DNA of 64,000 nt, from assembly GCA_964523645.1 (NCBI GenBank), contig CAZGAW010000005.1, forward strand, positions 2,464 to 66,463. The letters are read 5' to 3'. The notes under the pieces are model-generated. The model searched no databases. It was not told where the DNA came from and saw nothing but the letters and a program-made list of their open reading frames with translations. Shown in pieces: positions 39,676 to 53,464 of the stretch (positions are counted from its first letter, which is position 1; every line of letters starts with the position of its first letter). The position numbers were made by a program, and so were the translations under genes. The stretch comes from an uncultured bacterium (lineage in GTDB: Bacteria > Poribacteria > WGA-4E > WGA-3G).

Positions 39676-39686
39676 GTTGACACCAT

Positions 39687-39719
39687 AGGGCGAGGCGAAA
39701 AAACCTCGCCCTATTTTTA
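39687..39719 (+). terminator. Rho-independent terminator
   Basis: AGGGCGAGG, an 8-nt loop, then CCTCGCCCT, followed by ATTTTTAT. It begins 12 nt after the CBM9-like stop. Confidence 0.8.
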
Positions 39720-39737
39720 TAACCTAATTTGCCACTT

Positions 39738-39794
39738 GTAGCACAAACTTTCCAGTTTGTGCCAGTGAATGCGCAAACTAAAAGTTTACGCTAC
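39738..39794. repeat. REP-like doublet (family 1) in inverted orientation (REPIN-like)
   Basis: gtaGCACAAACTttccAGTTTGTGCc (39738-39763) is followed by GCGCAAACTaaaAGTTTACGCtac (39771-39794). The reverse complement of the first copy is nearly identical to 6386-6412. Confidence 0.65.
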
Positions 39795-39912
39795 GAGACC
39801 TTCGCGGCTCCTGATCGCTTTTCACCGAAAAACGGGGGCTGCATACGCGAAATCTTATAAGTAGCAACTTGCGTTTTTATAATGAAATACCATAAATAGC
39901 ACTGGAGCATCT

Positions 39913-40095
39913 GTGTATTATATCGGAAAAACTTTGGAACTGATGGGTATAGCCTGCTTGGGTGCAGGACTCTATTTAGGTTGTGTTAATCCTTTCGACT
40001 ACAGCGAATCCAAAGCAATGGGCGTTGAAATGGGCTTCCTAACACTCGGTGTTTTGGTTTTTTTTGTTGGCAGACTCATTGAAAAACGCCAATGA
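39913..40095 (+). CDS. Small two-TM membrane protein (60 aa), hypothetical
   Basis: GTG start with GGAG 6 nt upstream. Two hydrophobic segments are present (LELMGIACLGAGLYLGCV and FLTLGVLVFFVG). Confidence 0.4.
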   Translation: MYYIGKTLELMGIACLGAGLYLGCVNPFDYSESKAMGVEMGFLTLGVLVFFVGRLIEKRQ

Positions 40096-40142
40096 GGATT
40101 AATAATTAATGATGGGGTTATTTCTCTGATTGTATAAGTGTC

Positions 40143-41003
40143 ATGCAAAACTGTTTAGGTCAATTTTACACCAAAGAAGAAATAGCAAAATTGTGTTGGA
40201 AGCATCTTTCTGACACTCTTTCTCTCATAAATAGAAATATAGATGATGATAATCTATTGTTTGTGGAGCCTTCTGCTGGTACTGGCTCTTTTTTCAAATT
40301 GATGCCATCCCAAAGAAGGTTTGGTATGGATTTAGAACCTAAATATGAAGGTGTAAAAAAACAAGATTTTTTCAAGACTGTTCAGCTTGATTATGACTCT
40401 GACGATATTATAGTTGTTGGTAACCCACCCTTTGGTAAGAGAGGTAATTTAGCCGTATCTTTTTTTAATCACTCAGCCTATTTGGCGAGCACAATAGCAT
40501 TTATAGTCCCTGTTATTTTCCGAAAATTTATGGTTCACAAGAAGTTGGATTCCAGTTTAAAATTTATCAGCAAGCTAGAATTGCCTAGAGATTCGTTTGA
40601 ACTTGCTAATGGAAAACCCTATTCGGTAAATACTGAATTTCAGATATGGACTAAATTAGAATGTTCCTGCGATGACATGAGGCTTAATGAAGCCTTACCT
40701 ATATCTCACAAGGACTTCCAGATGTGGCAATATAACAACACACCTGCCGCTCTAAAAGCCTTTGAGAACGACTTTGATTTTGCTGTGCCTTCTCAAGGTT
40801 GGCAGGACTATTCCCGTAGAGAAACAGATTCAGCAAATTGCGAAAAAAATAAACAATGGATTTTACTAAAAGCTAAGAATCCAATAGTATTGTCTCGCTT
40901 ACTATCTATTGATTACAAGAGTCTGGCACAAAGATGTACTACGGCTGTTCCTGGATTTAGGAAGGGAGATTTAGTAAAGGAGTATAGTGATCGATATGAG
41001 TAG
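40143..41003 (+). CDS. Gamma-class N6-adenine DNA methyltransferase (type II R-M, TaqI/Eco57I-like motif order)
   Basis: 286 aa with motif X-like QFYTKEEIA, motif I VEPSAGTGSFF and motif IV VVGNPPFG. The gene is visibly AT-rich; lines I counted gave about 32-40% GC. Confidence 0.85.
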   Translation: MQNCLGQFYTKEEIAKLCWKHLSDTLSLINRNIDDDNLLFVEPSAGTGSFFKLMPSQRRFGMDLEPKYEGVKKQDFFKTVQLDYDSDDIIVVGNPPFGKRGNLAVSFFNHSAYLASTIAFIVPVIFRKFMVHKKLDSSLKFISKLELPRDSFELANGKPYSVNTEFQIWTKLECSCDDMRLNEALPISHKDFQMWQYNNTPAALKAFENDFDFAVPSQGWQDYSRRETDSANCEKNKQWILLKAKNPIVLSRLLSIDYKSLAQRCTTAVPGFRKGDLVKEYSDRYE

Positions 41004-41664
41004 AATTCAAGAATTATTCTTAGATATGAAGGATAATACTAGAAATTATCTAGTAAGCGACAAAGGGGCAGATTTTGAAAATCAATTTATCATTGGATTG
41101 GAAAGTCAAGGATATGAACAAGCGGATTTCTATGTATTAGGTGATTCCTATAAAAGTATGTTGAAACGAAGCATTGAACAAGATAATGACAGTATAAATA
41201 ACGAAACTGATCTGAATTACCATTATATAAGCCAGCCTTTCGGTTCTCAACGATACCCCGATTTTCTGATATTTGATCAGGATTGCGTTCTGTGTGTAGA
41301 ACTGAAATTTTCAAAGGGTAAAACAGCAAAGCCAGTATGGAATTCAGGACTACCTAGGTTTTACGGTTTATATCTATTCGGATCGTATGGAAGAAATGAT
41401 ATAACATTTTTCAGAGGTTGCGATATATTAAACGATCAGGATAGGGAACTTCTCAAAGGTTTTTTTGATAAAGAACTAGAACGATCGGAATCATTCAATA
41501 GTATGTACATGTCCGATCAAGAATTTGGATTTTCTACATATGCCAGAAAAGCATATCAGCAGACACAAAAACATAATTCTGATGCCATTACTAACTTCTT
41601 TGATAACCCATTAAGATTAAGGTTGGAGAGGTCTGTGTTGAACTATCTCATAAGTATTAGATAA
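40996..41664 (+). CDS. Putative type II restriction endonuclease (PD-(D/E)XK)
   Basis: RYPDFLIFDQDCVLCVELKFSKG fits PD...ExK. The ATG at 40996 overlaps the methyltransferase stop by 8 nt, which suggests translational coupling. AT-rich. Confidence 0.62.
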   Translation: MSRIQELFLDMKDNTRNYLVSDKGADFENQFIIGLESQGYEQADFYVLGDSYKSMLKRSIEQDNDSINNETDLNYHYISQPFGSQRYPDFLIFDQDCVLCVELKFSKGKTAKPVWNSGLPRFYGLYLFGSYGRNDITFFRGCDILNDQDRELLKGFFDKELERSESFNSMYMSDQEFGFSTYARKAYQQTQKHNSDAITNFFDNPLRLRLERSVLNYLISIR

Positions 41665-41754
41665 TGTGAGTTTGAAAAAAATAGGGGTTAATCAGTATAG
41701 GTAAATCGTTAATTTCCTGAAGTTCCCATCAGACACTTTCTCAACCATACCTGT

Positions 41755-42348
41755 ATGACAACAATTCAAAATACAGTGAATCTTCTTAAATATCACTTCT
41801 CTTATAATTATCACGATGCTGATACCTCACGACTTCCTGTGTTGGCATTCTACTCTATTTATGAGGTGTTCATGTCAATTGAGAGATATGAAGGCAAAAC
41901 GCTCTTGCCACTGAAAAGTCATACTACGTCGGATATCAAATCCGGTGGAATTGGAGATATTGAAGTACTGGAGAAAAATGGGAATTTTTTCGAGGCAGTC
42001 GAAATCAAACACAACATTCCAATTTCACCAGACCTTGTTGAAAGTGCGTATCAAAAGTTTGCTGAAATTCCTGTCCGTCGCTACTACTTACTCACCACAG
42101 CAGAGCCAAACGTTGATGATCCAAGAAAGGTAAATCAATTCGTTCAGCAAATCCGCAGACGGCACGGTTGTGAAGTGATCGTTAACGGTATTCTGCCGTC
42201 GTTAAAATACTACCTTCGATTGTTAACTAATCCGAAACTTTTCTTAGATTGCTACTCAAGAAACCTGCAGTTAGATTTTAATCAGAATACAGACATCAAG
42301 GAAATTCATTTACGTTATTGGAATGAATTGTTAGAATCCTTGCTATAA
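41755..42348 (+). CDS. Second putative PD-(D/E)XK nuclease-fold protein
   Basis: 197 aa. GGIGDIEVLEKNGNFFEAVEIKHN fits D...ExK. The strand and low GC match the two upstream genes. Confidence 0.55.
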   Translation: MTTIQNTVNLLKYHFSYNYHDADTSRLPVLAFYSIYEVFMSIERYEGKTLLPLKSHTTSDIKSGGIGDIEVLEKNGNFFEAVEIKHNIPISPDLVESAYQKFAEIPVRRYYLLTTAEPNVDDPRKVNQFVQQIRRRHGCEVIVNGILPSLKYYLRLLTNPKLFLDCYSRNLQLDFNQNTDIKEIHLRYWNELLESLL

Positions 42349-42371
42349 AAAATTGATTTTGAACAGTAGTT

Positions 42372-42785
42372 TTAGTCAGCAAGCTGCATAATCGCGATAC
42401 CCTGTTCGCCCGCGACCGAATAGAGCAGCCATTTTTCCCCGTCCTCACAATAGATAGCCGGATCCCGAAGTTCATGCCCGCGTTCCCGATCTAACCCACC
42501 TGTCGACCCTTTAATCGGTAAATCCACACCCTCAAAATCATACTTCGGCGCGATGACCTCTATCGGTGCAGAGGGTTGCCAAGCGTTCCAATCCTCTGTC
42601 AACTGCACGGTGCTTTTTCGGATGCGTTCTGGGCTATCGCCATAGAGTGAGTAATAGACCGTCAAGGTATCCCCTTCAAGGAGGTTCGCCGTGTGGCGCG
42701 GGAAACCGGTGTTGTCTTTTTCCGACTTACGATGAAAAAGCGGTGTGTCCCGTTGAATGAACGATGTTGTCCATTCAGAACTCAT
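42372..42785 (-). pseudogene. Truncated duplicate (C-terminal 137 aa) of the 49219..50106 glycoside-hydrolase-like gene
   Basis: The protein aligns residue for residue with the C-terminal part of the 295-aa protein (EWTTSFIQRDTPLFHRKSEKDN...). Homology stops abruptly at 42778, and the ATG is created at the junction. Confidence 0.8.
42388..42778. repeat. Left copy of a 391-bp direct repeat (partner 49229-49619)
   Basis: Aligned by hand with a constant offset of 6,841 bp and no indels. There are 15 mismatches between 42396 and 42543. Positions 42544-42778 are then identical (235 bp). Confidence 0.9.
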
Positions 42786-42919
42786 TTATGGAGCGTTCGG
42801 AACCCCTTTACTGCCTTCATTGTCCGCAACCTATCCACTAAATTGACACGTATGTATCGAAACCTCTTTGCCCCAGCGGAGCAATATGTCTATAACAGCT
42901 CCTTGGCAGCGAAACACCA

Positions 42920-44047
42920 TTATCGCTGCTTCAACACGCTCCACATCGTCGCCAAACGCAGCTGCGGACTCGACAGACGCGGTCCCGCAGGGACCGCTTC
43001 CACCGGCACACCCCACTTACTCCGCAAAAAATCAATAGACTCCCACACCAAATTCGTGGTATCTACGCTCCGGACGATGCGGGGAGTCTCCATCGCTTCC
43101 AAGCCTTCCAGCGTCGCATTCGTGTCTTTATAGCACGATATCGCAAAATCCACACGCCTGCCCTTCTCCGTAAACAAACGGTAGTCGAAACCCGGTAAGA
43201 CTTGACCGTCCCAGGTCAGGTCCCGCATCGGAAACGGATCGGCTTCGGGACTCTCTATCCGCACGATCCCGTCTTCGTCAACGACTGCGTTCTCTGCTGT
43301 GAGGAGATACTCGCGTCCGTGATTATACGGGACGGCTAACTTGAGTTTCCATCCCGCTAAGTCTGTGAGGCCTTCGGTGGGGTCAACATAGATTTCAACA
43401 GCCGTGGCTGTATAGATACCGGCACGGTTACTTTTATCTATTTCGACTTCAACGGCTTGGACGAAGACCTTGGGTGTCGGACGTCCAACGCCATTGGTTC
43501 TTTGCCATCCGACCGGACACCGGTAAACAACGACTTTTTGAGGTGGAGTTTCGACTTTCGGTGGGGGCGGTGGAGGAGGAGGTGGGGGCGGCGGAGGACC
43601 AACAATAATGGTAAGGGTGTTCTGCGGCTGGCAACCGGAACCTATGCGACCGTCCCAAGCCTGCACTACAAATTGATAAGTGCCTACCGGTATTGAAGAT
43701 CCGTCGGTTTTTACTTCCCATTTAGCAGTTGCCCCAACCTGATCGACACTGAAAGGCATATCGCTATGCCTTTTTTGTACACCATTTATTTGATGCCTGA
43801 TATCGCTTCCAGTGTAGAAATCTGCTGATGCTGAATTGGTAAAGGTGCCGCTCATAGTAAGTGTAATGAGCACCGTATCGTCTCCTACATTGCTGTAAGT
43901 TCTCTGAGTTGTGGATGACGGCGTCAATCGAGCATTACATCCTTGACCTTCTGATACGCGAGTTACCAAGAGACTACACGCCAACAGAACGCATACTGAA
44001 ATCAACAACTTGGGGGTCGTGCAGGATTGACTATAAAACGTTTTCAT
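42920..44047 (-). CDS. Secreted protein: Ig-like N-domain, 13-residue poly-Pro linker and lamin-tail-like (LTD) domain
   Basis: 375 aa with a signal peptide and a PPPPPPPPPPPPP run. The LTD-like pattern is AVEIYVDPTEGLTDLAGWKL. The C-terminus reads RLATMWSVLKQR. Confidence 0.78.
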   Translation of the reverse strand: MKTFYSQSCTTPKLLISVCVLLACSLLVTRVSEGQGCNARLTPSSTTQRTYSNVGDDTVLITLTMSGTFTNSASADFYTGSDIRHQINGVQKRHSDMPFSVDQVGATAKWEVKTDGSSIPVGTYQFVVQAWDGRIGSGCQPQNTLTIIVGPPPPPPPPPPPPPKVETPPQKVVVYRCPVGWQRTNGVGRPTPKVFVQAVEVEIDKSNRAGIYTATAVEIYVDPTEGLTDLAGWKLKLAVPYNHGREYLLTAENAVVDEDGIVRIESPEADPFPMRDLTWDGQVLPGFDYRLFTEKGRRVDFAISCYKDTNATLEGLEAMETPRIVRSVDTTNLVWESIDFLRSKWGVPVEAVPAGPRLSSPQLRLATMWSVLKQR

Positions 44048-44490
44048 AAATAAAGATATTCCTTTCGTATTGACAGACCCAACGCAGCGGCGTGGAGGTC
44101 CCTGACCGAGACTGAACAGAAACAGCCCCTTGGCGGGGTTCCCGTGTCAGGAATCCATGCAAGAGGCGAAGACAGCGGTTGCCCGTGTTTCGGGACGTAG
44201 CGGAAGTCGCAAGCCGCGAGGTCGAGTCTGAAGTGTGTTAGGGGAGAAGTTATACTTAACGTGAAATAAGGGGGGGTAACGGAGGTATCTAACATATCAC
44301 AAACTATCGCAGCCTCGGCGGGATGCCGCAAAGTCATTTCTACATCTGCTTGGATAGTTTCTGCTCGTATCATTGACCGAAATCCGTCTCCCTAAAATGT
44401 TTGAGGTGACAACTTGTGTTAAGTTATAATACGACAAATTTCGTAATTTTTCAAATTAAAATAAAAAGTCTATATGTAACTATAACCTAA

Positions 44491-44655
44491 TAGTCTGTCC
44501 AGTCTAAAATTAGGAGGAACCCCGCTCGTCGTAGGGCAATTCATTGCCCGTTCCTGACCGGCGGACGTGCGATAATGCACTTCGCATTTGGGCGAGTACG
44601 CCGCAAAATCGCACTACTACGAACTAATACCTACAACTTTAAGGTGGACAGACTA
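44491..44655. other. About 165-nt multi-stem structured element (candidate ncRNA or replication origin)
   Basis: The closing stem TAGTCTGTCCA (44491-44501) pairs with TGGACAGACTA (44645-44655), 11 bp. Nested inside are AGGAAC/GTTCCT (44515-20 / 44550-55) and GGGCAAT/ATTGCCC (44534-40 / 44543-49). Further short hairpins follow, and there is no ORF. Confidence 0.35.
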
Positions 44656-44753
44656 CTATAGTGAAATATACAATTATCATAATCTTCAGTGTCAAAACCC
44701 CGTCCTTTAGGGCGGGGATGTAGACGCTGCCTATGTTTGTAGCAAAAAAAGAT

Positions 44754-44782
44754 TTGACTTTTCTATGAAATTGTGGTATAAT
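44754..44782 (+). promoter_or_regulatory. Near-consensus sigma70 promoter for tnpB
   Basis: TTGACT, a 17-nt spacer, then TATAAT, with TGG just upstream of the -10 element. Confidence 0.6.
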
Positions 44783-44871
44783 TCATACACATCGTAGCGG
44801 TGGATTCTACCTCCCGCTTGGGAGTGCCACCGCACCGTTTAGAAGCGGTATTACGGTGTAAAGGAAATACG

Positions 44872-46026
44872 ATGTATACCACAAAATACAAATTTTTTCG
44901 TGCGCCACGCAACCGGCACCTGAAACGAAAGACGTGGATCGCACATACAATATGGAACTACTTTGTAGGTTGGCAACGCACGCGGAATTCTCTTGGATTG
45001 CCGTATCTGTCCTACAAAGAGATGTCGCGAGCATTTACTGTGCTCCGTAACTCGCATCCTGACGTTTTTTCACATTGGCGTAAGTTAGATTCATGGGCAG
45101 CGCGCCAAGTGCTTAAACGTCTGGATCTCGGTTATGATCGGTTCTTTAAGAAAATCGCAAAGCGACCCCCAAAGTTCCGATCGTTTCGTAAGCCATACTC
45201 GTTTACGATGTCTCCTTCTGGATACAAGTTTGCTGCCCCTATTACTGGTAATAAAGGATTCGGCATCTATAATGACCGTGTGACGATTATGGGTAAAGGG
45301 TATAGATTTAATCTGAGCCGTCCTATATTTGGAAAGATCAAAACTGTTACGATCAAAGAAGATGCACTGGGTGATTTCTATATGACTGTCGTTACGAATC
45401 ACATTCAGTCCCATCTCAAGCCAATGACGGGTAACGCTGCTGGGTTTGATATGGGCATCAAAACAATGTTGACGTGTTCCAACGGAAAACAGTATGAATC
45501 GCCTCATTTCTATACAGAATCTATTGATAACGTTAGAACAGCAAATCGTCAACTTTCGACAAAACAGCGTGAAAGCAACAACCGAGAACGTGCGCGACAC
45601 CACCATGCGCGTATGCATCGGAAAGTCCAGAGACAACGCGAAGATCACCATTGGAAACTTGCACTTGAACTTGTGCGTAGGTTTGATATTTTGTTCTTTG
45701 AGACATTGAACCTTGACGGTATGAAACGCCTGTGGGGTCGTAAAGTCTCTGATATTGGATTCTACGCATTCTTGCAGAAAGTCGAGTGGCAAGCGAAAAA
45801 GCGTGGAAAACGCGTTGAATACATCAATCAATGGCAACCGACAACGTCTGTGTGTCATATCTGTAATGCTCGTGTTTCTCTTGAATTGAGTGATAGAACA
45901 TGGACGTGTAAACATTGTAATACTCACCATGACCGCGACATTAACGCGGCTATCAACATTCTTAAGGTTGGGGCATCAACCTTTGGAGTAGAGAACGTTA
46001 GACTTGCTATTGCAAGCAGTTCTTGA
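44872..46026 (+). CDS. tnpB: TnpB (IS605 OrfB-family RNA-guided nuclease), apparently intact
   Basis: RuvC-like motifs: AAGFDMGIK (Asp), ILFFETLNL (Glu) and HHDRDINAAINI (Asp). The zinc finger is CHICN...CKHCN. The start is set at MYTTKYKFF (ATG 44872, with AAGGA upstream) rather than the GTG at 44800. Confidence 0.9.
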   Translation: MYTTKYKFFRAPRNRHLKRKTWIAHTIWNYFVGWQRTRNSLGLPYLSYKEMSRAFTVLRNSHPDVFSHWRKLDSWAARQVLKRLDLGYDRFFKKIAKRPPKFRSFRKPYSFTMSPSGYKFAAPITGNKGFGIYNDRVTIMGKGYRFNLSRPIFGKIKTVTIKEDALGDFYMTVVTNHIQSHLKPMTGNAAGFDMGIKTMLTCSNGKQYESPHFYTESIDNVRTANRQLSTKQRESNNRERARHHHARMHRKVQRQREDHHWKLALELVRRFDILFFETLNLDGMKRLWGRKVSDIGFYAFLQKVEWQAKKRGKRVEYINQWQPTTSVCHICNARVSLELSDRTWTCKHCNTHHDRDINAAINILKVGASTFGVENVRLAIASSS

Positions 46027-46085
46027 GGATACCAGAATCTCCCCCGCTTTAGCGGGGAGAGTATGTCAAGTATACACTTTAAAAT

Positions 46086-46114
46086 TTGACCAAAAATGAG
46101 AATTTTGATAATAT
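46086..46114 (+). promoter_or_regulatory. Sigma70-like promoter for the 983-aa gene
   Basis: TTGACC, a 17-nt spacer, then TAATAT, sited about 125 nt upstream of the ATG at 46239. Confidence 0.5.
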
Positions 46115-46238
46115 ACACTAATGAATAGAGAAACGCGGTGCCTCCGGGGTATAAGCCCCAGCGGGGCAACATCTGTGTAGAAACTTGGCAAAACGGTATC
46201 CAGAATTTACGCAATTCTGTCTTTAAGGAAACATATTG

Positions 46239-49190
46239 ATGACAACAGATGTCTTGGAAAATCTTATTGCACGCTGCCACCAACGACACGAGCACCCCCT
46301 TAAGCAACGGCAGTCGATCGTAGCACCGCTGCTTCACAAAGGGTTTCCTTACCATTTCACAGTCTATTGTGCACACAGATACCCTGTGATGCTTCAAGAC
46401 GTGGAGGCGGCGGATATTTCCTTTATGCCGATAGGACGGGTCCCTGGCAACGATCGACCCCCGCGCTCTTTTGGGGGTGAACGGTTCCTGAAACGCCAAC
46501 AGGCGGCAGACTGGGAAGCGCTTCGATGGCATAAGTCATGGGGGATTCAAGTGTATACGGGGGCCCCCTCAGCACGCGAGGGTGCGCCATGGCATGACAT
46601 CGACTTTAAATATGAGGCTATCTGTGCCGCACCGGATGCTGTTCTTGCTTGTGTTCAAGCACTCGTTGATGCCGTTGCGAACCCGTTGCTAACGCTGTCA
46701 AAGTCGGGTGGACTCCGCTTTTCTTGCAGAATACCCGGGTACCTACACCCGAACACCCAACAAGCCCGGCTGTATGTGCATAAGCACACACCGACATCGG
46801 AGGATCCGCACCAGCACGACACGTATCTTGAAATTGTAGGTGAGCAGGGATATAGTTGCTGGGATGCACGCTATGAAATTCTGCTTGGAGATCTGTTAGA
46901 TCCGCCTGTGATTTCCAAAGCAGTGCTTTTCCCGCCTCTTGATGCGTTTCGCGCTGCACTTCACAAACCTATGCCCCAAAGCGTCCAATACGAAGCGCGC
47001 ACCCTCGACGCGCCATATTCTCTCGGTTCGGGTAAACTTGACCTCGCGAAAGAGGCATTTTTTAAGCGTGGGTTTTCTTATCTCAGACAAGCCGATGGAA
47101 TTCACTATTGGAGCCGGCGAGAGGGTGAGACTAGCAATACAGCGGTATCGTTGTGGGAGAGCGAAGGTAACGTATGGATATGTGCATCCACGTCTGATAC
47201 GGGGTTGCCTGTGGAGGCAACGCTTATCACAGATGTTTGGAACGATACCGGCATCCTGCCACCGATTCCCGCGACGGGGCTGCCGATAGACGATGAAGTA
47301 CTTGCCATTCGGGAAGGGAAACTCAGTCCGCTGGCAATAAAACGTCCTAAGCCGGTGTTACACAAATTGGAACACGTCGAAAAGATGGATGAAACACGCG
47401 AAGACATTTGGGTTCAGCTGGAGCGTGCGCTCGATAGACGGGTGAGTGCGCTTGAATTCATTCCCGATGCGGATTCAGAGAAAGACGGTGAGGTCGGATC
47501 CCTTCTGAGTAATAATCGCGCAATATGTTTAAACGTGCCAGATGCTGAACTCGCTGCAGGCATGGAACAATTTTTTCAAAAGCAAGATGTGGGATCAGTA
47601 GCACAAATACTCCGGGATCACCGATTGTTTTTGGACCCTCAATACGCAAAAACAGCGGAACAAATTCTCCAACGGCGCGATGGAACACAGCAACTGTGTA
47701 TCATCAATGTAGAGAGAGAGGATCAACTGTTTCTGGAATGCGAACTCTCAAAAACCACATTGGAGAGATGGGTTGTCAACTGGGAAGGGAGTGCCCTCGG
47801 ATACTTTGCCACAGCCCTCCTGAATGCCACTGAAATCAGAGATAAATCTCACGCCAATGCTATCAGACGCCTTCGGACAGTCATACAGACGTTTGAATGG
47901 CTTGCAGAAGAGATCATCCAACAGATGTGTCACGTTGACGCGGCGACTGTTGAAAACATGCAAGAGTTTCCAACGGTTTCTTCGGATCCAAACTGGACGT
48001 TTTGGCATCAACTCAAACGTTTCTTCGGACATTACACCAGAGATGCTGATGCTCCGATGCACTGGGAGAACGAAGTGCTACGCTTCTGGGTGCCGCCGGT
48101 GCTGCATCCGAGCGTCAGACACCTTTTGGTCACCTCACCCGCGCTCTACGACGAACATGTACGGCGAGCGTTCTTGGACGAGGAAACTGAGAGCCTTCCG
48201 TCCGAACCCGTGGCGTGGGCTCCTGGAAATTGCGTTTTTCAGATTCGCACCGATGTATATCCACGGAAGACAATTTTAGACCTCTACAACACCTGGGACG
48301 TTTTTGGGATATCTGAAACCGGGCAGCACATTTTTTCCAGGATCCAAGCTGAAATCGAAAGGGATCCGAGTGTTAAGCATGGCATTATAAGCCACGTTCA
48401 CACAATTAGACGTTGTTTGGATAATATAAAAAAAAATAAGAATGTCCGTTTTCTGGCGAGCTTCCGAAAGAGAAAAGGATTGGAATCGAGCTTCCGAAAG
48501 AGAGACAGATTGGCAACCGTTTTCCAAGAAGCGCAGGTCCTCTGGATCGTTGGCATGCCGGAGATGGGACCCCGCGCCATTTTGGAGCGCACGCAGATCT
48601 TGTTTGGAAACGACGAAGAACCGCTTTCTTATGAAATGGAACTTGAAACATGCCGTTACAAAGACGAACGCGTCCAGAGCGTTTATGAAAAGGATATCGT
48701 CCATATATTCACAGAGGCTATAGCATTAGCGCAACTCAACCGTTTGGAAAATAAGAAAGTTATGTTGATTACAGGGTTGCGAATTCCTGATATCACCGAC
48801 AGACCCGAAACGCTCCTTTTTGACTGGGCAGACTTTGATATTGCTGGTGAGTTAGACAAACTTCCCGAGGCAATCGCGACACGCCAACGTTTTGAAACCG
48901 AACGCGACAATCTGACGGTTGAATCCAGCAGAAGAGAGGTAGAGCGAGTTCTCGGCTGCCCCCCAAGGCAGGCGAACCGAGTGTTACAACGGATGAGAGG
49001 GGGGAAGGTACGTGTCACTTTCCGCGAGCAAATTCTCACACTGCTCGCCGAGGGTGAGAAAACAACACCGGAATTCGCGGCGGCGATTCAAGGACACCCA
49101 AAAGCCATAAATACAGAACTCACACGCCTTGTGGGGATGGGTGTAATTGTAAAGGTGCGACGGGGGGTTTATAGACTCCCAGAGGATTAG
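46239..49190 (+). CDS. Large orphan protein: tentative AEP primase-polymerase-like N-terminus, unknown central region and C-terminal winged-helix DNA-binding domain
   Basis: 983 aa counted from the ATG. N-terminal motifs resemble prim-pol signatures: SWGIQVYTG...WHDIDFK (DxD), TLSKSGGLRFSCRIPG (sGGxH-like, but Arg replaces His) and YLEIVGEQGYSCW. I found no Walker A. The C-terminus reads ILTLLAEGEKTTPEFAAAIQGHPKAINTELTRLVGMGVIVKVRRGVYRL (wHTH-like). Confidence 0.8.
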   Translation: MTTDVLENLIARCHQRHEHPLKQRQSIVAPLLHKGFPYHFTVYCAHRYPVMLQDVEAADISFMPIGRVPGNDRPPRSFGGERFLKRQQAADWEALRWHKSWGIQVYTGAPSAREGAPWHDIDFKYEAICAAPDAVLACVQALVDAVANPLLTLSKSGGLRFSCRIPGYLHPNTQQARLYVHKHTPTSEDPHQHDTYLEIVGEQGYSCWDARYEILLGDLLDPPVISKAVLFPPLDAFRAALHKPMPQSVQYEARTLDAPYSLGSGKLDLAKEAFFKRGFSYLRQADGIHYWSRREGETSNTAVSLWESEGNVWICASTSDTGLPVEATLITDVWNDTGILPPIPATGLPIDDEVLAIREGKLSPLAIKRPKPVLHKLEHVEKMDETREDIWVQLERALDRRVSALEFIPDADSEKDGEVGSLLSNNRAICLNVPDAELAAGMEQFFQKQDVGSVAQILRDHRLFLDPQYAKTAEQILQRRDGTQQLCIINVEREDQLFLECELSKTTLERWVVNWEGSALGYFATALLNATEIRDKSHANAIRRLRTVIQTFEWLAEEIIQQMCHVDAATVENMQEFPTVSSDPNWTFWHQLKRFFGHYTRDADAPMHWENEVLRFWVPPVLHPSVRHLLVTSPALYDEHVRRAFLDEETESLPSEPVAWAPGNCVFQIRTDVYPRKTILDLYNTWDVFGISETGQHIFSRIQAEIERDPSVKHGIISHVHTIRRCLDNIKKNKNVRFLASFRKRKGLESSFRKRDRLATVFQEAQVLWIVGMPEMGPRAILERTQILFGNDEEPLSYEMELETCRYKDERVQSVYEKDIVHIFTEAIALAQLNRLENKKVMLITGLRIPDITDRPETLLFDWADFDIAGELDKLPEAIATRQRFETERDNLTVESSRREVERVLGCPPRQANRVLQRMRGGKVRVTFREQILTLLAEGEKTTPEFAAAIQGHPKAINTELTRLVGMGVIVKVRRGVYRLPED

Positions 49191-49218
49191 CACTGAAGCA
49201 TTCTGACATGGGTTCCCA

Positions 49219-50106
49219 TCATAGGCGAATAATCGCAATACCTTGTTCGCCTGCGACCGAATAGAGCAGCCACGTTTCTCCCGCCTCACAATAGATAGCC
49301 GGATCCCGAAGTTCATGCACGCGTTCCCGATCTAACCCACCTGTCGACGGTCTAATCGGTAAATCCGAACCCTCAAAATCATAATTCGGCGCGATGACCT
49401 CTATCGGTGCAGAGGGTTGCCAAGCGTTCCAATCCTCTGTCAACTGCACGGTGCTTTTTCGGATGCGTTCTGGGCTATCGCCATAGAGTGAGTAATAGAC
49501 CGTCAAGGTATCCCCTTCAAGGAGGTTCGCCGTGTGGCGCGGGAAACCGGTGTTGTCTTTTTCCGACTTACGATGAAAAAGCGGTGTGTCCCGTTGAATG
49601 AACGATGTTGTCCATTCAGGGGTTTGCCCCCGACTTAACCAACCGTGGTGCGTCGCATAGGGGAAACCCTTCCACCAAAAAACACGATAATAGGGTCCCA
49701 TCTGTTTATTCAGTGTATCCGAAGCGGTATAGTTCAGGCCATCGGTCGAAGTTGCCCAACAGGTTGCCTGCCCGCCACCGTAGTTTCCATGAAAATACAT
49801 AAAGAACCGTCGATTTTCCGCATCTATGTGGACATCCGGTGAAGCGATGTGGTCGCATCCCCGAAATACAGTATTGGCACGATGCAAGGCACCCGGGCGA
49901 TAGATAGTGTAAGGTCCCTCGATTGCCTCGGCATACGCCAATCGGATATAGGCACCACGATGATGGGCAAAGTAGAGGTAGTATCTCCCCAACGGATTTT
50001 CGACCCATTCCGGTACGCGAACGAGTGAAGGTCCGTTGATATTGGAGAAACCGTGTTCCCTATCAAGTTCAGACATTTCAGGATGGATTAGCAGCGTTCG
50101 TTCCAT
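49219..50106 (-). CDS. Five-bladed beta-propeller glycoside-hydrolase-like protein (GH43/32 clan, tentative)
   Basis: 295 aa containing GPSLVRVPEW, YYLYFAHH and ELRDPAIY (an RDP-type motif). This is the full-length copy of the fragment at 42372..42785. Confidence 0.65.
   Translation of the reverse strand: MERTLLIHPEMSELDREHGFSNINGPSLVRVPEWVENPLGRYYLYFAHHRGAYIRLAYAEAIEGPYTIYRPGALHRANTVFRGCDHIASPDVHIDAENRRFFMYFHGNYGGGQATCWATSTDGLNYTASDTLNKQMGPYYRVFWWKGFPYATHHGWLSRGQTPEWTTSFIQRDTPLFHRKSEKDNTGFPRHTANLLEGDTLTVYYSLYGDSPERIRKSTVQLTEDWNAWQPSAPIEVIAPNYDFEGSDLPIRPSTGGLDRERVHELRDPAIYCEAGETWLLYSVAGEQGIAIIRL
49229..49619. repeat. Right copy of the 391-bp direct repeat
   Basis: See 42388-42778. The identical 64-aa shadow ORFs at 42566..42760 and 49407..49601 in the track confirm the identity. 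Confidence 0.9.
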
Positions 50107-50114
50107 ATTTCTCC

Positions 50115-50936
50115 TTAATCGTGGTTCTGGAACCGATAGACTTCCTGCGCGGTTTCAGACATATCGCTCCATATCTTTTCTGGAATCCGTGCACCGAAGA
50201 TTCCGGGGGCATCGGGGGCATGGTGAAGCCGTCGGAAATAGACGAGTGCAAGCATGTGCCTCACTGTAGATTTTGTCCGATTCGGCATGGCTCGGTGCCA
50301 ACACCGCATGTCACGGACGACAACAGAACCCGCAGGCATCTCTAACTGAAATGAAGGGTAGTTTGCCGCACGTTCAGGCTCACAGACGTTGTACGGAGAA
50401 TTTCGCACTGCCTCGTCATCCACGATGAGATGCGAACCGGGCCATACTTCAGTCGCACCGTTTTCCACTGTAAAATCGACAAGCGGAATGTTAACAACAA
50501 TCGTTGAAACGGGTAGCGCGAACGGGAGTTCAGGGAAAAGTTGCCCCGAATCTCGATGAATCCACTGGATTTCGTTTCCGGGACGCGTTGAGTTACAACC
50601 GTAAGGCAAATAGGCAAAGATCTTTTCGCCCATTGCGGCTTTCATAATCGACATAGCGAAAGGGTTATCAATGATACGCGGGTCCATGAACGGCATCTTT
50701 AGCATTGGATTTTCGCCGTTCTGTCGCTCCTCTTCATTCTGAAGTACATTTTCCATAGCAACGTTGAGTTCCGCTATCCAATCGCGTGGAAGAACGCTCT
50801 CAATGACGACCAACCCCGCCTCGCGTAACAAACGTTCGCCAGTCTCAACGCTTTCAGGTGTGAGTTTATTTTCAGCGCGTTCCTGATCGGAGATTTCCAG
50901 TATCGGAATGTTTACGGTTCGTCCTGTGGGTTCCAT
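50115..50936 (-). CDS. Phytanoyl-CoA dioxygenase (PhyH) family Fe(II)/2-oxoglutarate oxygenase
   Basis: 273 aa with WIHRDSG (HxD) and the distal His in CWHRAMPNRT. Confidence 0.82.
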   Translation of the reverse strand: MEPTGRTVNIPILEISDQERAENKLTPESVETGERLLREAGLVVIESVLPRDWIAELNVAMENVLQNEEERQNGENPMLKMPFMDPRIIDNPFAMSIMKAAMGEKIFAYLPYGCNSTRPGNEIQWIHRDSGQLFPELPFALPVSTIVVNIPLVDFTVENGATEVWPGSHLIVDDEAVRNSPYNVCEPERAANYPSFQLEMPAGSVVVRDMRCWHRAMPNRTKSTVRHMLALVYFRRLHHAPDAPGIFGARIPEKIWSDMSETAQEVYRFQNHD

Positions 50937-50939
50937 CTG

Positions 50940-51713
50940 CTAAGCCCGCCTTTCTGGTTGGTTTTGAGGAAGTTTTAATTCTGCTCGAACTGCTTGGCGA
51001 ACCCGTTCACATACGCCCGTTGCGTGGTGTGCGTCCTCGGTGGTTGCTGATTTACCCGGATATCGAAAGTCCACTGCATGTTGAGAAACTGTCGAAAAAT
51101 CAGACTGCCAAACGTGCCAATCGGGAATAACAGGTAAAATTAAAGCTAACAATTCTTTCAAATCATGCGTCTTGGCAAATTGAAGGTCAGTCTCTTGGAG
51201 GCATGCTTTTAGGTATTTTTCTATATACTGTTGCGCATGAAAACAGATAAAATCGAAATTCGGTGATGCCGCCTGCTGATGCAATTCTATGGCAGCATAA
51301 TCGCCTTCAGCTTTCCGTACCCATTCAAGTGTTAGTGAATTGATAGTCTCGTTCTCTGTCTCCAAGATTTTCATGGAGAGATTGTCAGGACCATAAAGCA
51401 CTTGCCCTTTTTCAGTGATTTCTCGGAGAAACCAATCGTTGTATGAAGTTCGATAAGCGATTTCCTCTGGCGAGCGAACCAGCAAATCCATGCTGAAACG
51501 GCGCGGGATACGTTGAACAATCTCTACAGCTTGACGACGTGTCTCTGATTCCGGAATCTCCATGACGACCAATAAATCAACGTCTGAATCTTCAGTCGGC
51601 ATGCCGTACGCATAGGATCCAAAAAGAATGACCTGTAGGGGCGCAAATTCACGGACGATGTCGTTACAAGTTGCTTGGATGTCCTTTCGAGAAATCATCT
51701 GCCTACCTCCCAT
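50940..51713 (-). CDS. Fused nucleotidyltransferase (MNT-like) + HEPN domain protein
   Basis: The N-terminus reads ILFGSYAYGMPTEDSDVDLLVV (GS...DxD). The C-terminus carries HEPN-like KTHDLKELL and VDFRYPG. It ends 3 nt upstream of the PhyH gene. Confidence 0.8.
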   Translation of the reverse strand: MGGRQMISRKDIQATCNDIVREFAPLQVILFGSYAYGMPTEDSDVDLLVVMEIPESETRRQAVEIVQRIPRRFSMDLLVRSPEEIAYRTSYNDWFLREITEKGQVLYGPDNLSMKILETENETINSLTLEWVRKAEGDYAAIELHQQAASPNFDFICFHAQQYIEKYLKACLQETDLQFAKTHDLKELLALILPVIPDWHVWQSDFSTVSQHAVDFRYPGKSATTEDAHHATGVCERVRQAVRAELKLPQNQPERRA

Positions 51714-51883
51714 TTTTCAAAGTATACTATTAAAAGGGCAATTAGTCAAGTTCATTACTACAGCAAGTGAAGAAGGAATCAGAAGAAGAAAAAATTGTTG
51801 TTTTCTCCTGCTAATTTGTATAGAATAAACTACATCCTATCGGCATCAGTTTCAGAACAGCATTTACAAGCAAGGAGCAAATA

Positions 51884-52672
51884 ATGACACCTGAAGTCGC
51901 TTTACAAAAACGGGAGCAAATGATTGAAGAGGGTTTCTGCGTTGTTGATGATGTCCTAAGTGAAGAGTTCTTGCAGGAGCTCCGAGACGAGTCGGAACGG
52001 CTTATCGCAGGACATGTAGAACCCGAGGACGTTGTCTATCAAGGACAGCACGTCAACGTCCGCGGTGAAGATAACCCGCATATTCAAAAACTGTTGGAAT
52101 GGCAACCCTCACGCGAGGCTTTAGAACAGATTGGGTTCGGAGATTTTGTATCATCTGGCGGGATCATTATCCTAACGAAAGAATCCGGGGGACCCCCACT
52201 CTATTGGCATCAAGATTGGATGCGTTGGAACGATCCATTGAGCTGCGCGCCGTGGCCCCAAACGATTTTCCTGAATTACTATCTCACCGATACAAACCGA
52301 GAGAATGGTTGTTTAAAGGTCATTCCGGGGACACACCGCAAGCGAATCGACCTGCACGACATACTCGTACCTGCGCATGAACAAGGCGCACGCTTCATTG
52401 ATGAAGACCATCCTACCATGTTCAGCGATCACCCGGATCAGATAGATGTCTGTGCAAAAGCGGGATCGTTGGTAATGGCAGACGCTCGCATCTTACACTC
52501 CGCTCACAGAAACTTCACTGATGTTCGACGCACACTCATTCTCGCGTGGCATAGCCGTCCGAACACCGTACCAGACTATTGGGATCGCGAAATCCCGGAA
52601 ATCATTGTGAATCGCGACGAAGACGCAAATTATCCGATGTCTCGTATTCCTGGTGATTTATTACAGCCATAA
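51884..52672 (+). CDS. PhyH-family Fe(II)/2OG oxygenase
   Basis: 262 aa with LYWHQDW (HxD) and ILHSAHRN. AAGGAG lies upstream. Confidence 0.85.
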   Translation: MTPEVALQKREQMIEEGFCVVDDVLSEEFLQELRDESERLIAGHVEPEDVVYQGQHVNVRGEDNPHIQKLLEWQPSREALEQIGFGDFVSSGGIIILTKESGGPPLYWHQDWMRWNDPLSCAPWPQTIFLNYYLTDTNRENGCLKVIPGTHRKRIDLHDILVPAHEQGARFIDEDHPTMFSDHPDQIDVCAKAGSLVMADARILHSAHRNFTDVRRTLILAWHSRPNTVPDYWDREIPEIIVNRDEDANYPMSRIPGDLLQP

Positions 52673-52705
52673 CACAGCGCAGTGCCTTGAGGATATGGAG
52701 GAAAA

Positions 52706-53464
52706 ATGATTCCTATTGATCTCACGAATAAAGTGGCGGTAATTACCGGCGGTTCAGGCGCATTAGGTCGCGTTATGGTAAGGACTCTGGCGGAAGCAGG
52801 TGCAGATATCGCAATCTGCTACTACCAGGACCAAGAAACGGCGCGCCTTCTACAGGATGAAATCATTGCAAAGGGCGTAAAGGTAACCGCTGTACAGGCA
52901 GATGTCACGAATCAGGATTCAATAAACGCGATGCGTGACATCGTTTCAGCGGAATTGGGTGCCGCAGACATCATCGTTAATAATGCTGTAATCCAGTATA
53001 CCTGGACCTCTGTTTTGGAACAATCCGCTGAAGACTACGAAAGCCAGTTCGAGTCATGTGTCCTGCATAATGTATACATGGCACAAGCCTTCGTTCCAGC
53101 GATGATCGAATCAGGATGGGGACGCGTTGTCAGCATTAATACGGAATGTTCAATGCAAAACTTCGCGAATCAGAGTGCTTATACATCGGGCAAGCGAGGT
53201 ATGGACGGCGTTTTACGGGTACTCGCAAAAGAGGTTGGTGCGCACGGTGTTACTGTCAATCAAGTCGCGCCAGGGTGGACAATCAGCGAAAAAAGTGAAT
53301 CAAGAGCGTCCGACGAACATTATTGGCGTAAAGTGCCGATGCAACGCCGAGGGACTGCTCAAGAAATCGCTAATACTGTGCTCTTCCTTGCATCGGACCT
53401 CTCGAGTTATATCACGGGTGTGTATATCCCCGTGTGCGGCGGGAATGTAATGCCCACGATTTGA
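52706..53464 (+). CDS. SDR-family oxidoreductase (FabG-like)
   Basis: 252 aa with TGGSGALG, NNAV and YTSGK (YxxxK). Confidence 0.9.
   Translation: MIPIDLTNKVAVITGGSGALGRVMVRTLAEAGADIAICYYQDQETARLLQDEIIAKGVKVTAVQADVTNQDSINAMRDIVSAELGAADIIVNNAVIQYTWTSVLEQSAEDYESQFESCVLHNVYMAQAFVPAMIESGWGRVVSINTECSMQNFANQSAYTSGKRGMDGVLRVLAKEVGAHGVTVNQVAPGWTISEKSESRASDEHYWRKVPMQRRGTAQEIANTVLFLASDLSSYITGVYIPVCGGNVMPTI

Follow-up and report, generated by a model that had tools for sequence, protein, structure and literature searches.

A duplicated gene end in a Poribacteria genome as a probable seam between two alternative alleles of a hyper-variable chromosomal locus

We analysed a 64,000-nucleotide stretch of DNA from an uncultured Poribacteria genome (contig CAZGAW010000005.1, positions 2,464 to 66,463; hereafter the window), in which two copies of the 3' end of one gene, each 391 bp in length, bracket 6.45 kb of DNA. 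We consider it reasonably probable that this repeat represents a long-standing recombination scar, passed on by vertical descent, at a hyper-variable chromosomal hot spot of Poribacteria, left by one homologous and one illegitimate recombination. The bracketed DNA is made up of a resident gene of a multicopy primase-polymerase family, a surface-protein operon and a tnpB insertion, rather than being a discrete recent plasmid, and the event at the hot spot is ordinary in kind. The hot spot is bounded by FtsH and CBM9 genes and a conserved non-coding "block" on the left, and by GH-like and PhyH genes on the right. Two alleles are found between these bounds, i.e., (i) block, variable cargo, 983-aa primase-polymerase-like gene and GH-like gene, and (ii) block, restriction-modification (R-M) system and GH-like gene. 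In the lineage of the window both alleles stand in tandem, fused at 42778/42779, and the 3' 391 bp of the GH-like gene are therefore present twice. A long gene-end repeat without a recombinase need not mean a live integrative plasmid; here it would be the seam of two alternative alleles, partly homogenised by gene conversion, which advises caution when mobile elements are called from repeats only in metagenome-assembled genomes. The features involved are as follows (positions are those of the window):

39881-40109, no strand: conserved non-coding block, left edge of the hot spot (blastn, 81-88% to relatives)
40143-41664, forward strand: type II R-M island outside the repeats, with a methyltransferase (40143-41003) and a putative PD-(D/E)XK nuclease (40987-41664)
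41755-42348, forward strand: remnant (C-terminal half) of an older SacI-like restriction endonuclease gene, convergent with the stump
42372-42785, reverse strand: stump, the displaced 3' end of the GH-like gene (137-aa ORF), with the left repeat copy (42388-42778)
42778/42779, no strand: illegitimate junction, where GH-internal sequence is fused to the 3' flank of the surface-protein gene and homology is lost abruptly
42920-44373, reverse strand: two-gene unit (ORF calls) of orf109 (44044-44373) and a 375-aa protein (42920-44047)
44800-46026, forward strand: tnpB, IS200/IS605-type accessory nuclease (OrfB_IS605, PF01385, 2.9e-19; Cas12f1-like_TNB, PF07282, 5.8e-20)
46071-46120, forward strand: promoter-like motif (TTGACC, 17-nt spacer, TAATAT) upstream of the 983-aa gene
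46239-49190, forward strand: gene for a 983-aa protein with a predicted AEP-fold N-terminus, an uncharacterised middle and a C-terminal winged helix-turn-helix
49219-50106, reverse strand: intact GH-like gene (295 aa), with the right repeat copy (49229-49619)

The repeat and the DNA that it brackets

The repeat structure described in the first-pass annotation was reproduced in all respects. Positions 42388-42778 and 49229-49619 align without gaps at a constant offset of 6,841 bp and are identical at 376 of 391 bases; the inner core (42544-42778 and 49385-49619) is identical at all 235 bases, and all 15 mismatches fall in the outer 156 bp (probability ~1e-6 if they were uniformly placed). Directly beyond either end of the repeat, identity drops to background (27-32%), the left junction reading CCATTCAG followed by AACTCATT and the right junction CCATTCAG followed by GGGTTTGC. 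Seven of the codons that differ between the two tails are nonsynonymous and four are synonymous. The ORF calls likewise agree with the description of the left copy as a 137-aa stump and of the right copy as an intact 295-aa gene; the stump corresponds to residues 162-295 of the intact protein, and its ATG (42783-42785) lies past the junction. The intact protein has orthologs with 85-87% amino acid identity, one copy each in relatives. We retain "GH-like" as a name; PF04616 matches recorded for a few distant homologs are its sole basis, and the protein of the window itself has no sequence match in Pfam, NCBIfam or PDB.

Among the bracketed genes, the 375-aa protein is a probable secreted protein with a poly-proline linker. 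It has no Pfam match, even at E<=5, and its earlier label as an LTD protein was thus not confirmed; a longer homolog in L087 carries a cadherin domain. Homologs of this gene run on past the junction in two other assemblies (L086 and L087), and a Logan contig (L085) covers 42825-44599 at 100% identity. The tnpB gene is present in one copy only within the window, no TnpA (Y1 transposase) ORF was found with it, and an Rfam search gave no match. As previously stated, a Pfam scan of 42779-49228 (five main and ten overlapping ORFs of at least 100 aa) revealed no tyrosine, serine or DDE recombinase and yielded TnpB and a winged helix-turn-helix (wHTH) only; NCBIfam and PHROGs searches of the segment also gave no recombinase, and TnpB (OrfB_IS605 and TNB) is its only mobility-related protein. 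The expectation of a plasmid-like segment fared less well. The GC content of the interior (0.44-0.54) is the same as that of the flanks, with no compositional step across the repeats, and the foreign-looking low-GC DNA (0.34-0.37) lies outside them, at 40000-42350. Comparison with the plasmid and phage databases PLSDB and INPHARED gave no match.

Alternative alleles and the age of the junction

Window positions 36000-40109 and 46217-54000 are colinear (76-86% nucleotide identity) with L039, L041, L045, L046, L051 and L053, which represent six different species, and with L088-90. Six other Poribacteria species and four additional contigs show the homolog of the 983-aa gene at this position, converging on a single GH-like gene, with no stump, and the 391-bp sequence is single-copy in the nine syntenic genomes and contigs named above as well as in L082. 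The L053 alignment is continuous from the 3' end of the 983-aa gene into the GH-like and PhyH genes, and in this genome just 90 bp separate the block from the 983-aa homolog; in the other syntenic relatives, the alignment is interrupted only over the few bases that separate the convergent stop codons. The block is the final sequence common to all relatives before window-specific DNA begins (blastn against the syntenic set, L082 and L087). Compared to the syntenic genomes, the DNA specific to the window is 40110-46216 and not 42779-49228. The interior had been viewed as a foreign insert, but its largest part, the 983-aa gene together with the point where it meets the GH-like gene, proved to be syntenic chromosomal DNA in relatives lacking the repeat, an outcome that the first-pass annotation had itself named as counting against its hypothesis.

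The second allele is represented by L082, a distant genome (about 20% diverged) with the order block, methyltransferase, SacI-like endonuclease, GH-like and PhyH, in which the 983-aa gene is absent. Window positions 41760-42346 and 42373-42776 align adjacently with L082, the spacer being ~220 bp in L082 as compared to 26 bp in the window. The methyltransferase and nuclease assignments for the R-M island are based on PADLOC (MTase_II, 6.5e-49), phrog_5172 and phrog_18119, and a weak PDDEXK_3 match (E 0.025). The endonuclease remnant corresponds to residues 189-383 of a 383-aa endonuclease in L087 (85% amino acid identity) and shows 77.5% nucleotide identity to L082; this truncated gene is a second stump, 24 bp from the GH-like stump, and indicates that illegitimate replacement events recur in the hot spot. 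The two repeat tails follow the two alleles. On the right, the tail is joined through a 26-nt spacer directly to the 983-aa gene, an arrangement shared with genomes in which that gene alone occupies the site, and the stretch over the stop codon is base-identical to L053. The left tail ends '...IMQLAD*', a type common to L080, L081 and L082, and abuts the restriction endonuclease gene, as in L082. The L053 and L082 comparisons therefore agree with the prediction that the right tail is linked to the 983-aa side and the left tail to the other flank. An arrangement like the proposed empty site exists in L082, which has a single gene copy directly beside its R-M system, but six species have the junction between the 983-aa and GH-like genes at the site without the repeat.

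The 137-aa stump ORF and the same junction nucleotide were also found in L086 and L087, which come from different biosamples. Identity to the window is 97.5% over 38041-43509 for L086 and 94.7% over 42362-43543 for L087, which carries an L082-type R-M system beside its stump; both contigs stop inside the surface-protein gene, and the stump is physically linked to the intact gene in the window contig only. As stump and junction are shared with strains 2.5-5% diverged, the event is old, and their recurrence argues against an assembly artefact as well as against a recent event such as a freshly integrated plasmid. The 235-bp stump core of the window shows three differences from that of L086 and five from that of L087, as compared to none from the intact copy of the window, and the stump tails of L086 and L087 are a mosaic of the two tail types of the window. 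As the sister stump cores differ from that of the window, the perfect 235-bp identity within the window would be best explained by gene conversion, a reading of the sequences that is based on only three to five substitutions.

From the product we infer both the type and polarity of recombination and the subsequent gene conversion. An ancestor would have undergone one homologous and one illegitimate recombination, and the geometry of the repeat fits a homologous step within the 3' end of the GH-like gene. The most likely geometry appears to be homology-facilitated illegitimate recombination with a linear fragment from an allele (ii) donor, consisting of the block, the R-M system and the final 391 bp of the GH-like gene. 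The left end of this fragment would have been anchored through homology, and its right end would have been attached by the illegitimate join, just beyond the 3' end of the surface-protein gene in an allele (i) chromosome. The opposite polarity, with the 983-aa gene brought into an allele (ii) chromosome on a segment acquired through Campbell-type or 3'-end-displacement recombination, would give the same product. Later gene conversion between stump and intact gene may then have kept the junction-proximal 235 bp identical, while the stop-proximal 156 bp would have remained mosaic.

The 983-aa protein family and alternative explanations

The primase-polymerase fold is a hallmark of plasmids and integrative elements. 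Based on a structural model, the N-terminal domain of the 983-aa protein can confidently be assigned to this (AEP) fold. Residues 1-250 were modelled with an AF2 pLDDT of 90.5 (the full-length model, with a pLDDT of 44, is uninformative), and the top Foldseek matches of this region in PDB were NrS-1, pRN1 ORF904, the S. islandicus primase-polymerase and the LigD polymerase (probability 1.0 to 1RNI and NrS-1). BFVD gave 34 matches at E<=1e-3 (best E 5e-8), of which the named best ones are nearly all primase-polymerases or primase-helicases. The sole Pfam match is a C-terminal AbiEi_4 wHTH, with none to Prim-Pol. At sequence level, HDIDF stands at residues 119-123, D209 is invariant, and motif I is degenerate in several family members. 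A Walker A motif is absent from the 983-aa protein and from six of seven relatives checked; the exception, P0393, carries it at the extreme C-terminus and has the same N-terminal domain fused to DUF3987. The earlier designation "putative replication protein" hence stands at fold level for the N-terminal 250 residues, but is not accompanied by a P-loop helicase motif.

The family includes >1,300 homologs, found only in Poribacteria wherever the source names an organism. It is multicopy, with at least three loci each in several genomes, on chromosomes as well as on a plasmid-like contig, and diverged copies form tandem arrays in L021, L061, L069 and L072 (84-86% identity in L021, about 70-88% in the other arrays). 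At more than 20 loci, the promoter-like motif is 85-92% identical and lies at a comparable distance upstream of the homolog. At the DNA level, the window gene is closest (85.7% nucleotide identity, as compared to 76-79% for the syntenic copies) to copies on L084 and on L083, a plasmid-like contig of 88.7 kb that appears to be circular and carries Rep3, ParA and an integrase; the window allele may thus come from elsewhere. Homology to these two contigs is confined to 46075/46217-49203, i.e., the gene itself (and its upstream region). A GH-like gene fragment lies beside the 983-aa homolog only at the syntenic locus, roughly 80 other loci being without one, and is therefore not a portable attachment site. 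These data provide a fold assignment for a large orphan family of a sponge-symbiont phylum, whose biology (element replication, defence or other) could merit dedicated study.

Following the model of the first-pass annotation, 42779-49619 could be a 6,841-bp plasmid-like circle, with the 983-aa protein as replicase, that captured the 391-bp fragment, integrated in Campbell fashion beside the R-M system and may still excise. We consider this unlikely. Direct repeats of exactly the homology region do flank the segment, and no recombinase would be needed; however, the junction of the 983-aa and GH-like genes is normal chromosomal synteny in at least six species without the repeat. The layout in L082 resembles an empty site, but this sole example comes from the genome that is about 20% diverged. 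The fold of the N-terminus resembles that of the pRN1 ORF904 replicase, and the plasmid-like contig carries close homologs, whereas tandem arrays and a missing Walker A motif are atypical of a plasmid replicase, no terminal overlap indicating a small circle was found among 20 short contigs (18 with a homolog), and plasmid and phage databases gave no match. While the perfect 235-bp repeat would permit RecA-mediated excision, stump and junction occur in strains that are 2.5-5% diverged and have differing R-M neighbours, and any Campbell integration would therefore be ancient and fixed.

Alternatively, the 983-aa gene with its promoter could be an undescribed, Poribacteria-wide single-gene selfish unit that inserts into chromosomes and plasmids at convergent 3' ends, without a canonical recombinase and with long variable target duplications (391 bp in the window, 73 bp in L042), its own primase-polymerase activity possibly filling staggered breaks; the stump would then be one insertion scar. 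The number and distribution of homologs, the primase-polymerase fold and the restriction of inter-locus homology to the gene and its conserved upstream region are in keeping with this proposal, even though the tandem arrays resemble gene-family expansion and the DxD motif is degenerate in several members. In L042, a 73-bp direct repeat brackets a 983-aa homolog, and in both this locus and the window the right copy directly follows the stop codon of the gene, in L042 on the 3' end of a convergent gene; L021 also has bracketing repeats, although patchier. As the L042 repeat suggests, the insertion mechanism may be recurrent rather than a one-off accident. On the other hand, roughly 80 other copies lack a bracketing repeat, the repeats of the window also enclose 3.4 kb of unrelated genes, the position is conserved over six species, which speaks against frequent movement, and presence/absence polymorphism with exact ends was not found. 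Overall, we regard such a unit as quite improbable.

It is very improbable that the structure is an assembly artefact, in which two strain haplotypes were threaded through a collapsed 235-bp node. Passing twice through one graph node would leave just such a pattern, a perfect core with tails that diverge as between strains; in addition, the contig belongs to a metagenome-assembled genome, and short-read contigs break nearby (L085 ends at 42825 and 44599). Nevertheless, the junction between GH-internal sequence and surface-protein flank must exist in real molecules and was independently assembled in two other biosamples with 2.5-5% sequence divergence, and both outer flanks of the structure adjoin in all relatives, so that the order in the window is as expected. 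A site-specific integrative element at the gene 3' end is likewise not supported, as there is no tyrosine or serine recombinase and, among the loci with a 983-aa homolog, the GH-like fragment accompanies the cargo only at the syntenic one.

Comparison with known systems

The proposed scar shares features with several known systems. As in Campbell-type plasmid integration, homology repeats flank an insert without a site-specific recombinase; however, the window has no plasmid backbone beyond the primase-polymerase-fold protein, its structure is old and fixed across strains, and the would-be plasmid holds a normal chromosomal junction. As in islands of tyrosine integrases that target the 3' ends of tRNA, tmRNA and protein genes, the gene is restored and a stump is left at the far end, but the window has no integrase, its repeat is mosaic and greatly exceeds the usual length of an attachment-site core, and in ~80 other loci the cargo occurs without the gene fragment. 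The 983-aa protein resembles pRN1 ORF904 and phage AEP proteins in its N-terminal primase-polymerase fold, its length (roughly 900-1000 aa) and its C-terminal winged helix; unlike ORF904, it has neither a Walker A or superfamily-3 helicase motif nor a Pfam Prim-Pol match, and its family is multicopy, with tandem chromosomal arrays and a DxD motif that is degenerate in some members.

Nobusato et al. reportedly described insertion with long target duplication in 2000. In cases of this kind, as in the window, a segment of <20 kb is flanked by a long direct repeat that is single-copy in the comparator and often overlaps a gene 3' end, without integrase or transposase and with an R-M system at the site. 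Target duplications of 46-423 bp have been documented for insertions that lack mobility genes (PMC2853133), and Furuta, Abe & Kobayashi 2010 searched for repeats >30 bp that are single-copy in the comparator and for inserts <20 kb (PMC2853133). The 391-bp repeat and the 6.45-kb insert fall within these limits, but the published inserts are R and M genes, whereas the R-M genes of the window (40143-41664) lie just outside the repeats and much of its bracketed DNA has a syntenic counterpart in other genomes.

Orphaned 3' fragments left behind by homology-facilitated illegitimate recombination have also been documented (PMC5361080, citing de Vries & Wackernagel 2002 and Prudhomme et al. 2002). This process shares with the window one homologous anchor and one illegitimate join, although in the window the mechanism is deduced from the product alone. 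Arrays formed by 3'-end (C-terminal) displacement are described for rhs, CDI and T6SS effector loci (PMC5361080; PMC3240628). The GH-like gene, unlike the genes of these arrays, does not encode a polymorphic toxin, nor is its 3' end the module that varies. Nevertheless, in the window as in these arrays, an orphaned 3' fragment with a partly conserved region has been displaced yet retained, at a locus that exchanges alternative modules among strains.

The direct repeat and the DNA between its copies

The segments at 42388-42778 and 49229-49619 are offset by 6,841 bp and give a gap-free alignment in which 376 of 391 positions are identical. There is no difference in the inner 235 bp of the repeat, the 15 mismatches being confined to the outer 156 bp (chance approx. 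1e-6 under the assumption that mismatches are uniformly placed); outside the repeat, identity is at background level on both sides. The left copy represents a 137-aa ORF (the "stump") whose counterpart in the intact 295-aa GH-like gene containing the right copy is residues 162-295, and the ATG of the stump lies 5-7 nt past the junction at 42778/42779. In the tails, the differences between the two window copies affect 7 nonsynonymous and 4 synonymous codons. The repeat coordinates, offset, identical core and edges, as well as the assignment of the two gene copies, are exactly as described in the first-pass annotation.

Features at, between and to the left of the repeat copies
40143-41664: type II methyltransferase and putative PD-(D/E)XK nuclease, low GC (0.34-0.37)
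41755-42348: endonuclease remnant (C-terminal half), 197 aa, with 85% aa identity to residues 189-383 of the ortholog in L087 (a locus from another assembly)
42372-42785, minus strand: stump ORF, 137 aa
42920-44047, minus strand: probable secreted protein, 375 aa, with a poly-proline linker
overlapping the gene for the 375-aa secreted protein: ORF of 109 aa
44800-46026, plus strand: tnpB, with Pfam OrfB_IS605 and TNB domains
46239-49190, plus strand: ORF of 983 aa
49219-50106, minus strand: intact GH-like gene, 295 aa

ORF calling and Pfam searches identified four genes between the repeats. The main and overlapping ORFs of the bracketed DNA include no tyrosine, serine or DDE recombinase detectable with Pfam, NCBIfam or PHROGs, as had been noted initially. 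The first-pass annotation had also read the segment as a plasmid-like insertion. The GC content of the interior (0.44-0.54) does not set it apart from the flanks, and DNA of foreign composition (0.34-0.37) is located outside the repeats, at 40000-42350; the plasmid and phage databases PLSDB and INPHARED contained nothing similar at either the DNA or the protein level. Rfam showed no match in 39500-50500 at E<=1, and exact-protein look-ups found no match for the 984-aa ORF with a TTG start, the 295-aa gene, the stump or the protein P0001.

A short GC-rich hairpin motif (GCCCCAGCGGRGC...) occurs at 42870-42894, just downstream of the surface-protein gene (i.e., the gene for the 375-aa protein) and near the junction, and again, within the 983-aa gene's 5' leader, at 46155-46179; the similarity between these two 25-nt segments comes down to this short motif, and similar matches of 33-36 nt are found in three other loci (L015, L019 and L068). 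A dispersed element of approx. 40-60 nt with predicted hairpins (core AATGCACTTCGCATTTGGGCGAGTACGCCGCAAAA) is located at 44569-44627 and is found, in either orientation and in unrelated contexts, in at least 11 other Poribacteria loci. Within this element, which may represent an insertion-sequence end or a repeat of the REP or MITE type, a Logan contig (L085) terminates. L085 comes from run SRR8304769, the likely source of the window, and matches 42825-44599 with 100% identity. The orthologs of the GH-like gene on three long-read-style contigs (L080:9598-10489, L081:2376-3270 and L082:10001-10892) are split or truncated by single frameshifts, reflecting either homopolymer sequencing errors or recurrent pseudogenisation.

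Gene order around the GH-like gene in related genomes

Colinearity with the window extends to both sides in six species representatives (L039, L041, L045, L046, L051 and L053). The gene order in these genomes is FtsH (minus strand), a CBM9-domain gene (plus), a conserved non-coding block of approx. 230 bp (window 39881-40109), a variable stretch (0.09-8.8 kb), a homolog of the 983-aa gene (plus), the convergent GH-like gene (minus) and PhyH (minus); the GH-like gene is single-copy in each of the six and none carries the stump. The same arrangement is present in three JGI contigs (L088-90) and in L080. DNA of the six representatives aligns to window 36000-40109 and 46217-54000 with 76-86% nt identity. 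The alignment to L053 runs past the 3' end of the 983-aa gene and on into the GH-like gene with no break; in the other syntenic genomes the only gap is the handful of bases that separate the convergent stop codons. As the alignment crosses this junction in relatives, the right repeat copy and its left neighbour represent ordinary chromosomal synteny. Relative to the syntenic genomes, the window-specific DNA is 40110-46216, rather than 42779-49228, and the largest gene of the supposed plasmid-like interior is thus syntenic in relatives that lack the repeat, which argues against that reading. A scan of JGI metagenomes with the GH-like protein found only three close loci, all with the 983-aa gene beside the GH-like gene; the remaining 77 loci represented distant homologs from unrelated environments.

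The variable slot of L039, L041, L045, L046 and L051 carries a conserved gene pair encoding proteins of 181 aa and 336-368 aa, as well as lipoprotein-like genes; the 336-368-aa protein contains a Walker-type motif (GETGVGKE), by which it may be a sigma-54-activator-like AAA+ protein. The slot of L053 is empty (90 bp).

A different neighbourhood is found in L082, a locus on a 1.74-Mb contig, with the order FtsH, CBM9 gene, block, N6/N4 methyltransferase, 383-aa SacI-like endonuclease, GH-like gene and PhyH, in which the 983-aa gene is absent at this locus. Window 41760-42346 and 42373-42776 align to L082 11702-11116 and 10892-10489, respectively, with the aligned stretches separated by approx. 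220 bp in L082 versus 26 bp in the window, where the endonuclease remnant ends 24 bp from the stump. The hot spot contains a nested replacement, in which the low-GC methyltransferase and putative nuclease displaced an older methyltransferase and the 5' half of the SacI-like endonuclease. As both types of neighbourhood of the GH-like gene, i.e., the one with restriction-modification (R-M) genes and the one with the 983-aa gene, are present in the window, the window is a composite in which two alleles of a single hot spot stand in tandem, fused at 42778/42779. The tail types agree with such a composite: the right tail and its adjoining bases correspond to L053, and the left tail has the "...IMQLAD*" ending of L080, L081 and L082. 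The initial prediction that the two tails would be linked to different sources was therefore correct, but each tail is a chromosomal allele type.

The family of the 983-aa protein

Sequence methods (Pfam, NCBIfam, PHROGs, PADLOC, PDB) detect only a C-terminal winged helix, AbiEi_4/ArsR-like, in the 983-aa protein. An AF2 model of residues 1-250, based on a 17-sequence alignment, reached a pLDDT of 90.5 and a pTM of 0.89, as compared to a pLDDT of 44 for the full-length model. The best matches of this domain in a PDB fold search were the primase-polymerase domains of NrS-1 and pRN1 ORF904 (probability 0.98-1.0, TM up to 0.54), with the S. islandicus primase-polymerase, the LigD polymerase and CAPP ranking next; a search of viral models yielded 34 matches at E<=1e-3, headed by the N-terminal domains of bifunctional primase/polymerases (lowest E 5e-8, TMq 0.57-0.59). 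As the primase-polymerase matches were consistent, a weak profile match to lincosamide nucleotidyltransferase (E 0.27) was dropped. The window protein retains HDIDF (residues 119-123) and the invariant D209, and motif I is degenerate in some members of the family. The annotation as a putative replication protein thus gains support at the level of the fold, for the N-terminal domain and nothing beyond it. A simple plasmid-replicase role is uncertain, as no Walker A or other helicase motif was found in the protein, homologs occur in tandem arrays and the chromosomal position is conserved.

More than 1,300 homologs were found at E<=1e-3 among 8,000 candidates scored, and these are from Candidatus Poribacteria (sponge symbionts) wherever the source names an organism. 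This orphan family comprises two size classes, of approx. 970 aa and 1,130 aa, with several copies per genome. A scan of one genome per species yielded 79 loci (76 from Poribacteria and 3 from "uncultured bacterium"), and tandem arrays of 2-4 diverged copies are present in L021, L061, L069 and L072. A profile search identified 495 cluster representatives (50% identity) and also found the N-terminal approx. 250 residues and the C-terminal approx. 600 residues separately. In one relative (P0393) the N-terminal domain is fused to DUF3987, and in another (P0402) it is replaced by a BT4734-like_N domain (PF08800), which we take to be primase-related.

Some observations suggest mobility of this gene family. 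The window gene has its nearest DNA relatives in L083 and L084 (85.5-85.8% nt identity) and not among the syntenic copies; homology to L083 and L084 is limited to 46075/46217-49203. L083 is a contig of 88.7 kb with Rep3, ParA, tyrosine integrase and CBASS genes and is apparently circular and plasmid-like (its name ends in "_c", which we take to be the assembler's mark for a circular contig). A 50-nt sigma-70-like promoter motif (TTGACC, 17 nt, TAATAT) at 46071-46120 is 85-92% conserved upstream of homologs at more than 20 loci, even where the proteins are only approx. 60-70% identical, and in the 1,130-aa class the conserved upstream region stretches over approx. 300-500 bp. A conserved module of the surface-protein gene and the 983-aa gene was considered and dropped, because surface-protein homologs are found upstream of the 983-aa-gene homolog only in L029 and L024; a Pfam LTD-domain protein is upstream in L083.

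Bracketing direct repeats were searched for systematically around family copies, the repeat in the window being 391 bp. In L042, a 73-bp direct repeat (83.6% identity; 9245-9317 and 13411-13483) surrounds the homolog and its upstream region; its right copy extends over the 3' end of a convergent 496-aa gene and its left copy begins 2 nt past the stop codon of a 253-aa gene, i.e., the same architecture as in the window with a different target. Patchy repeats flank the three-copy array in L021, two direct copies of a tnpB element (7584-8787 and 13020-14227; 1.2 kb, 90% identical) flank the homolog in L003 in what resembles a composite transposon, and arrays of an approx. 56-nt tandem repeat are present on both sides of the homolog in L078. 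Roughly 80 other copies had no bracketing direct repeats, and 0 of 20 short contigs (18 with a homolog) showed terminal overlaps. These observations allow a further reading, of low probability but of interest, in which the 983-aa gene would be a selfish unit that inserts with long target duplications.

Age and origin of the seam

The stump's exact-sequence cluster includes two more 137-aa proteins, both from other assemblies. L086 (SAMN17524320) is 97.5% identical to window 38041-43509 and colinear through the R-M island, stump and junction into the surface-protein gene. Over 42362-43543, L087 (SAMN12291123) shows 94.7% identity to the window; beside the stump it carries an L082-type methyltransferase and a full-length endonuclease. 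The junction nucleotide is the same in all three, which argues against both an assembly artefact and a recent event; the seam is older than a strain divergence of 2.5-5% and than an R-M replacement. Within the 235 bp of the core, 3 sites separate the window stump from that of L086 and 5 sites from that of L087, but none separates it from the intact gene of the window. The stump tails of L086 and L087 carry the alleles of the window's intact gene at 42432-42543 and stump-type alleles at 42388-42431. The simplest account, drawn from few sites, would be repeated gene conversion between stump and intact copy, with tract lengths that differ among strains.

Two steps are required for the product, a single exchange between homologous sequences and a single illegitimate join at 42778/42779, and three events could lead to it. 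We favour homology-facilitated illegitimate recombination of a linear fragment from a carrier of the R-M allele (comprising the block, the R-M genes and the last 391 bp of the GH-like gene). The left side of this fragment would have been anchored, and the illegitimate join would lie downstream of the surface-protein gene of a recipient chromosome with the 983-aa-gene allele. This is the canonical geometry of such recombination, the nearest core-gene relatives of the window carry the 983-aa-gene allele (86% versus 79.5% for L082), and R-M systems are classic incoming cargo. The same product would result from the mirror event, anchored in the GH-like gene with displacement of its 3' end, or from Campbell integration of a circularised 6.8-kb fragment. 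The R-M side (80-84%, L087 versus L082) and the 983-aa-gene side (76-82%) both show about core-genome divergence, which favours neither polarity of the event; it could even be that the composite is the ancestral state and that other lineages have lost parts of it differentially.

Of the plasmid-like-insertion reading, the geometry (homologous plus illegitimate recombination, with no recombinase), the tail linkage and the primase-polymerase protein are in partial support; a discrete, recent plasmid-like insertion is not supported, and the "cargo" is mostly resident DNA. The by-product, a family with a primase-polymerase fold, is of greater interest. Target duplications of 46-423 bp at insertions with no mobility gene have been documented (PMC2853133), as have 3' fragments orphaned at module-exchange loci by homology-facilitated illegitimate recombination (PMC5361080); the structure described here adds a new case of a known type of scar at a variable locus.
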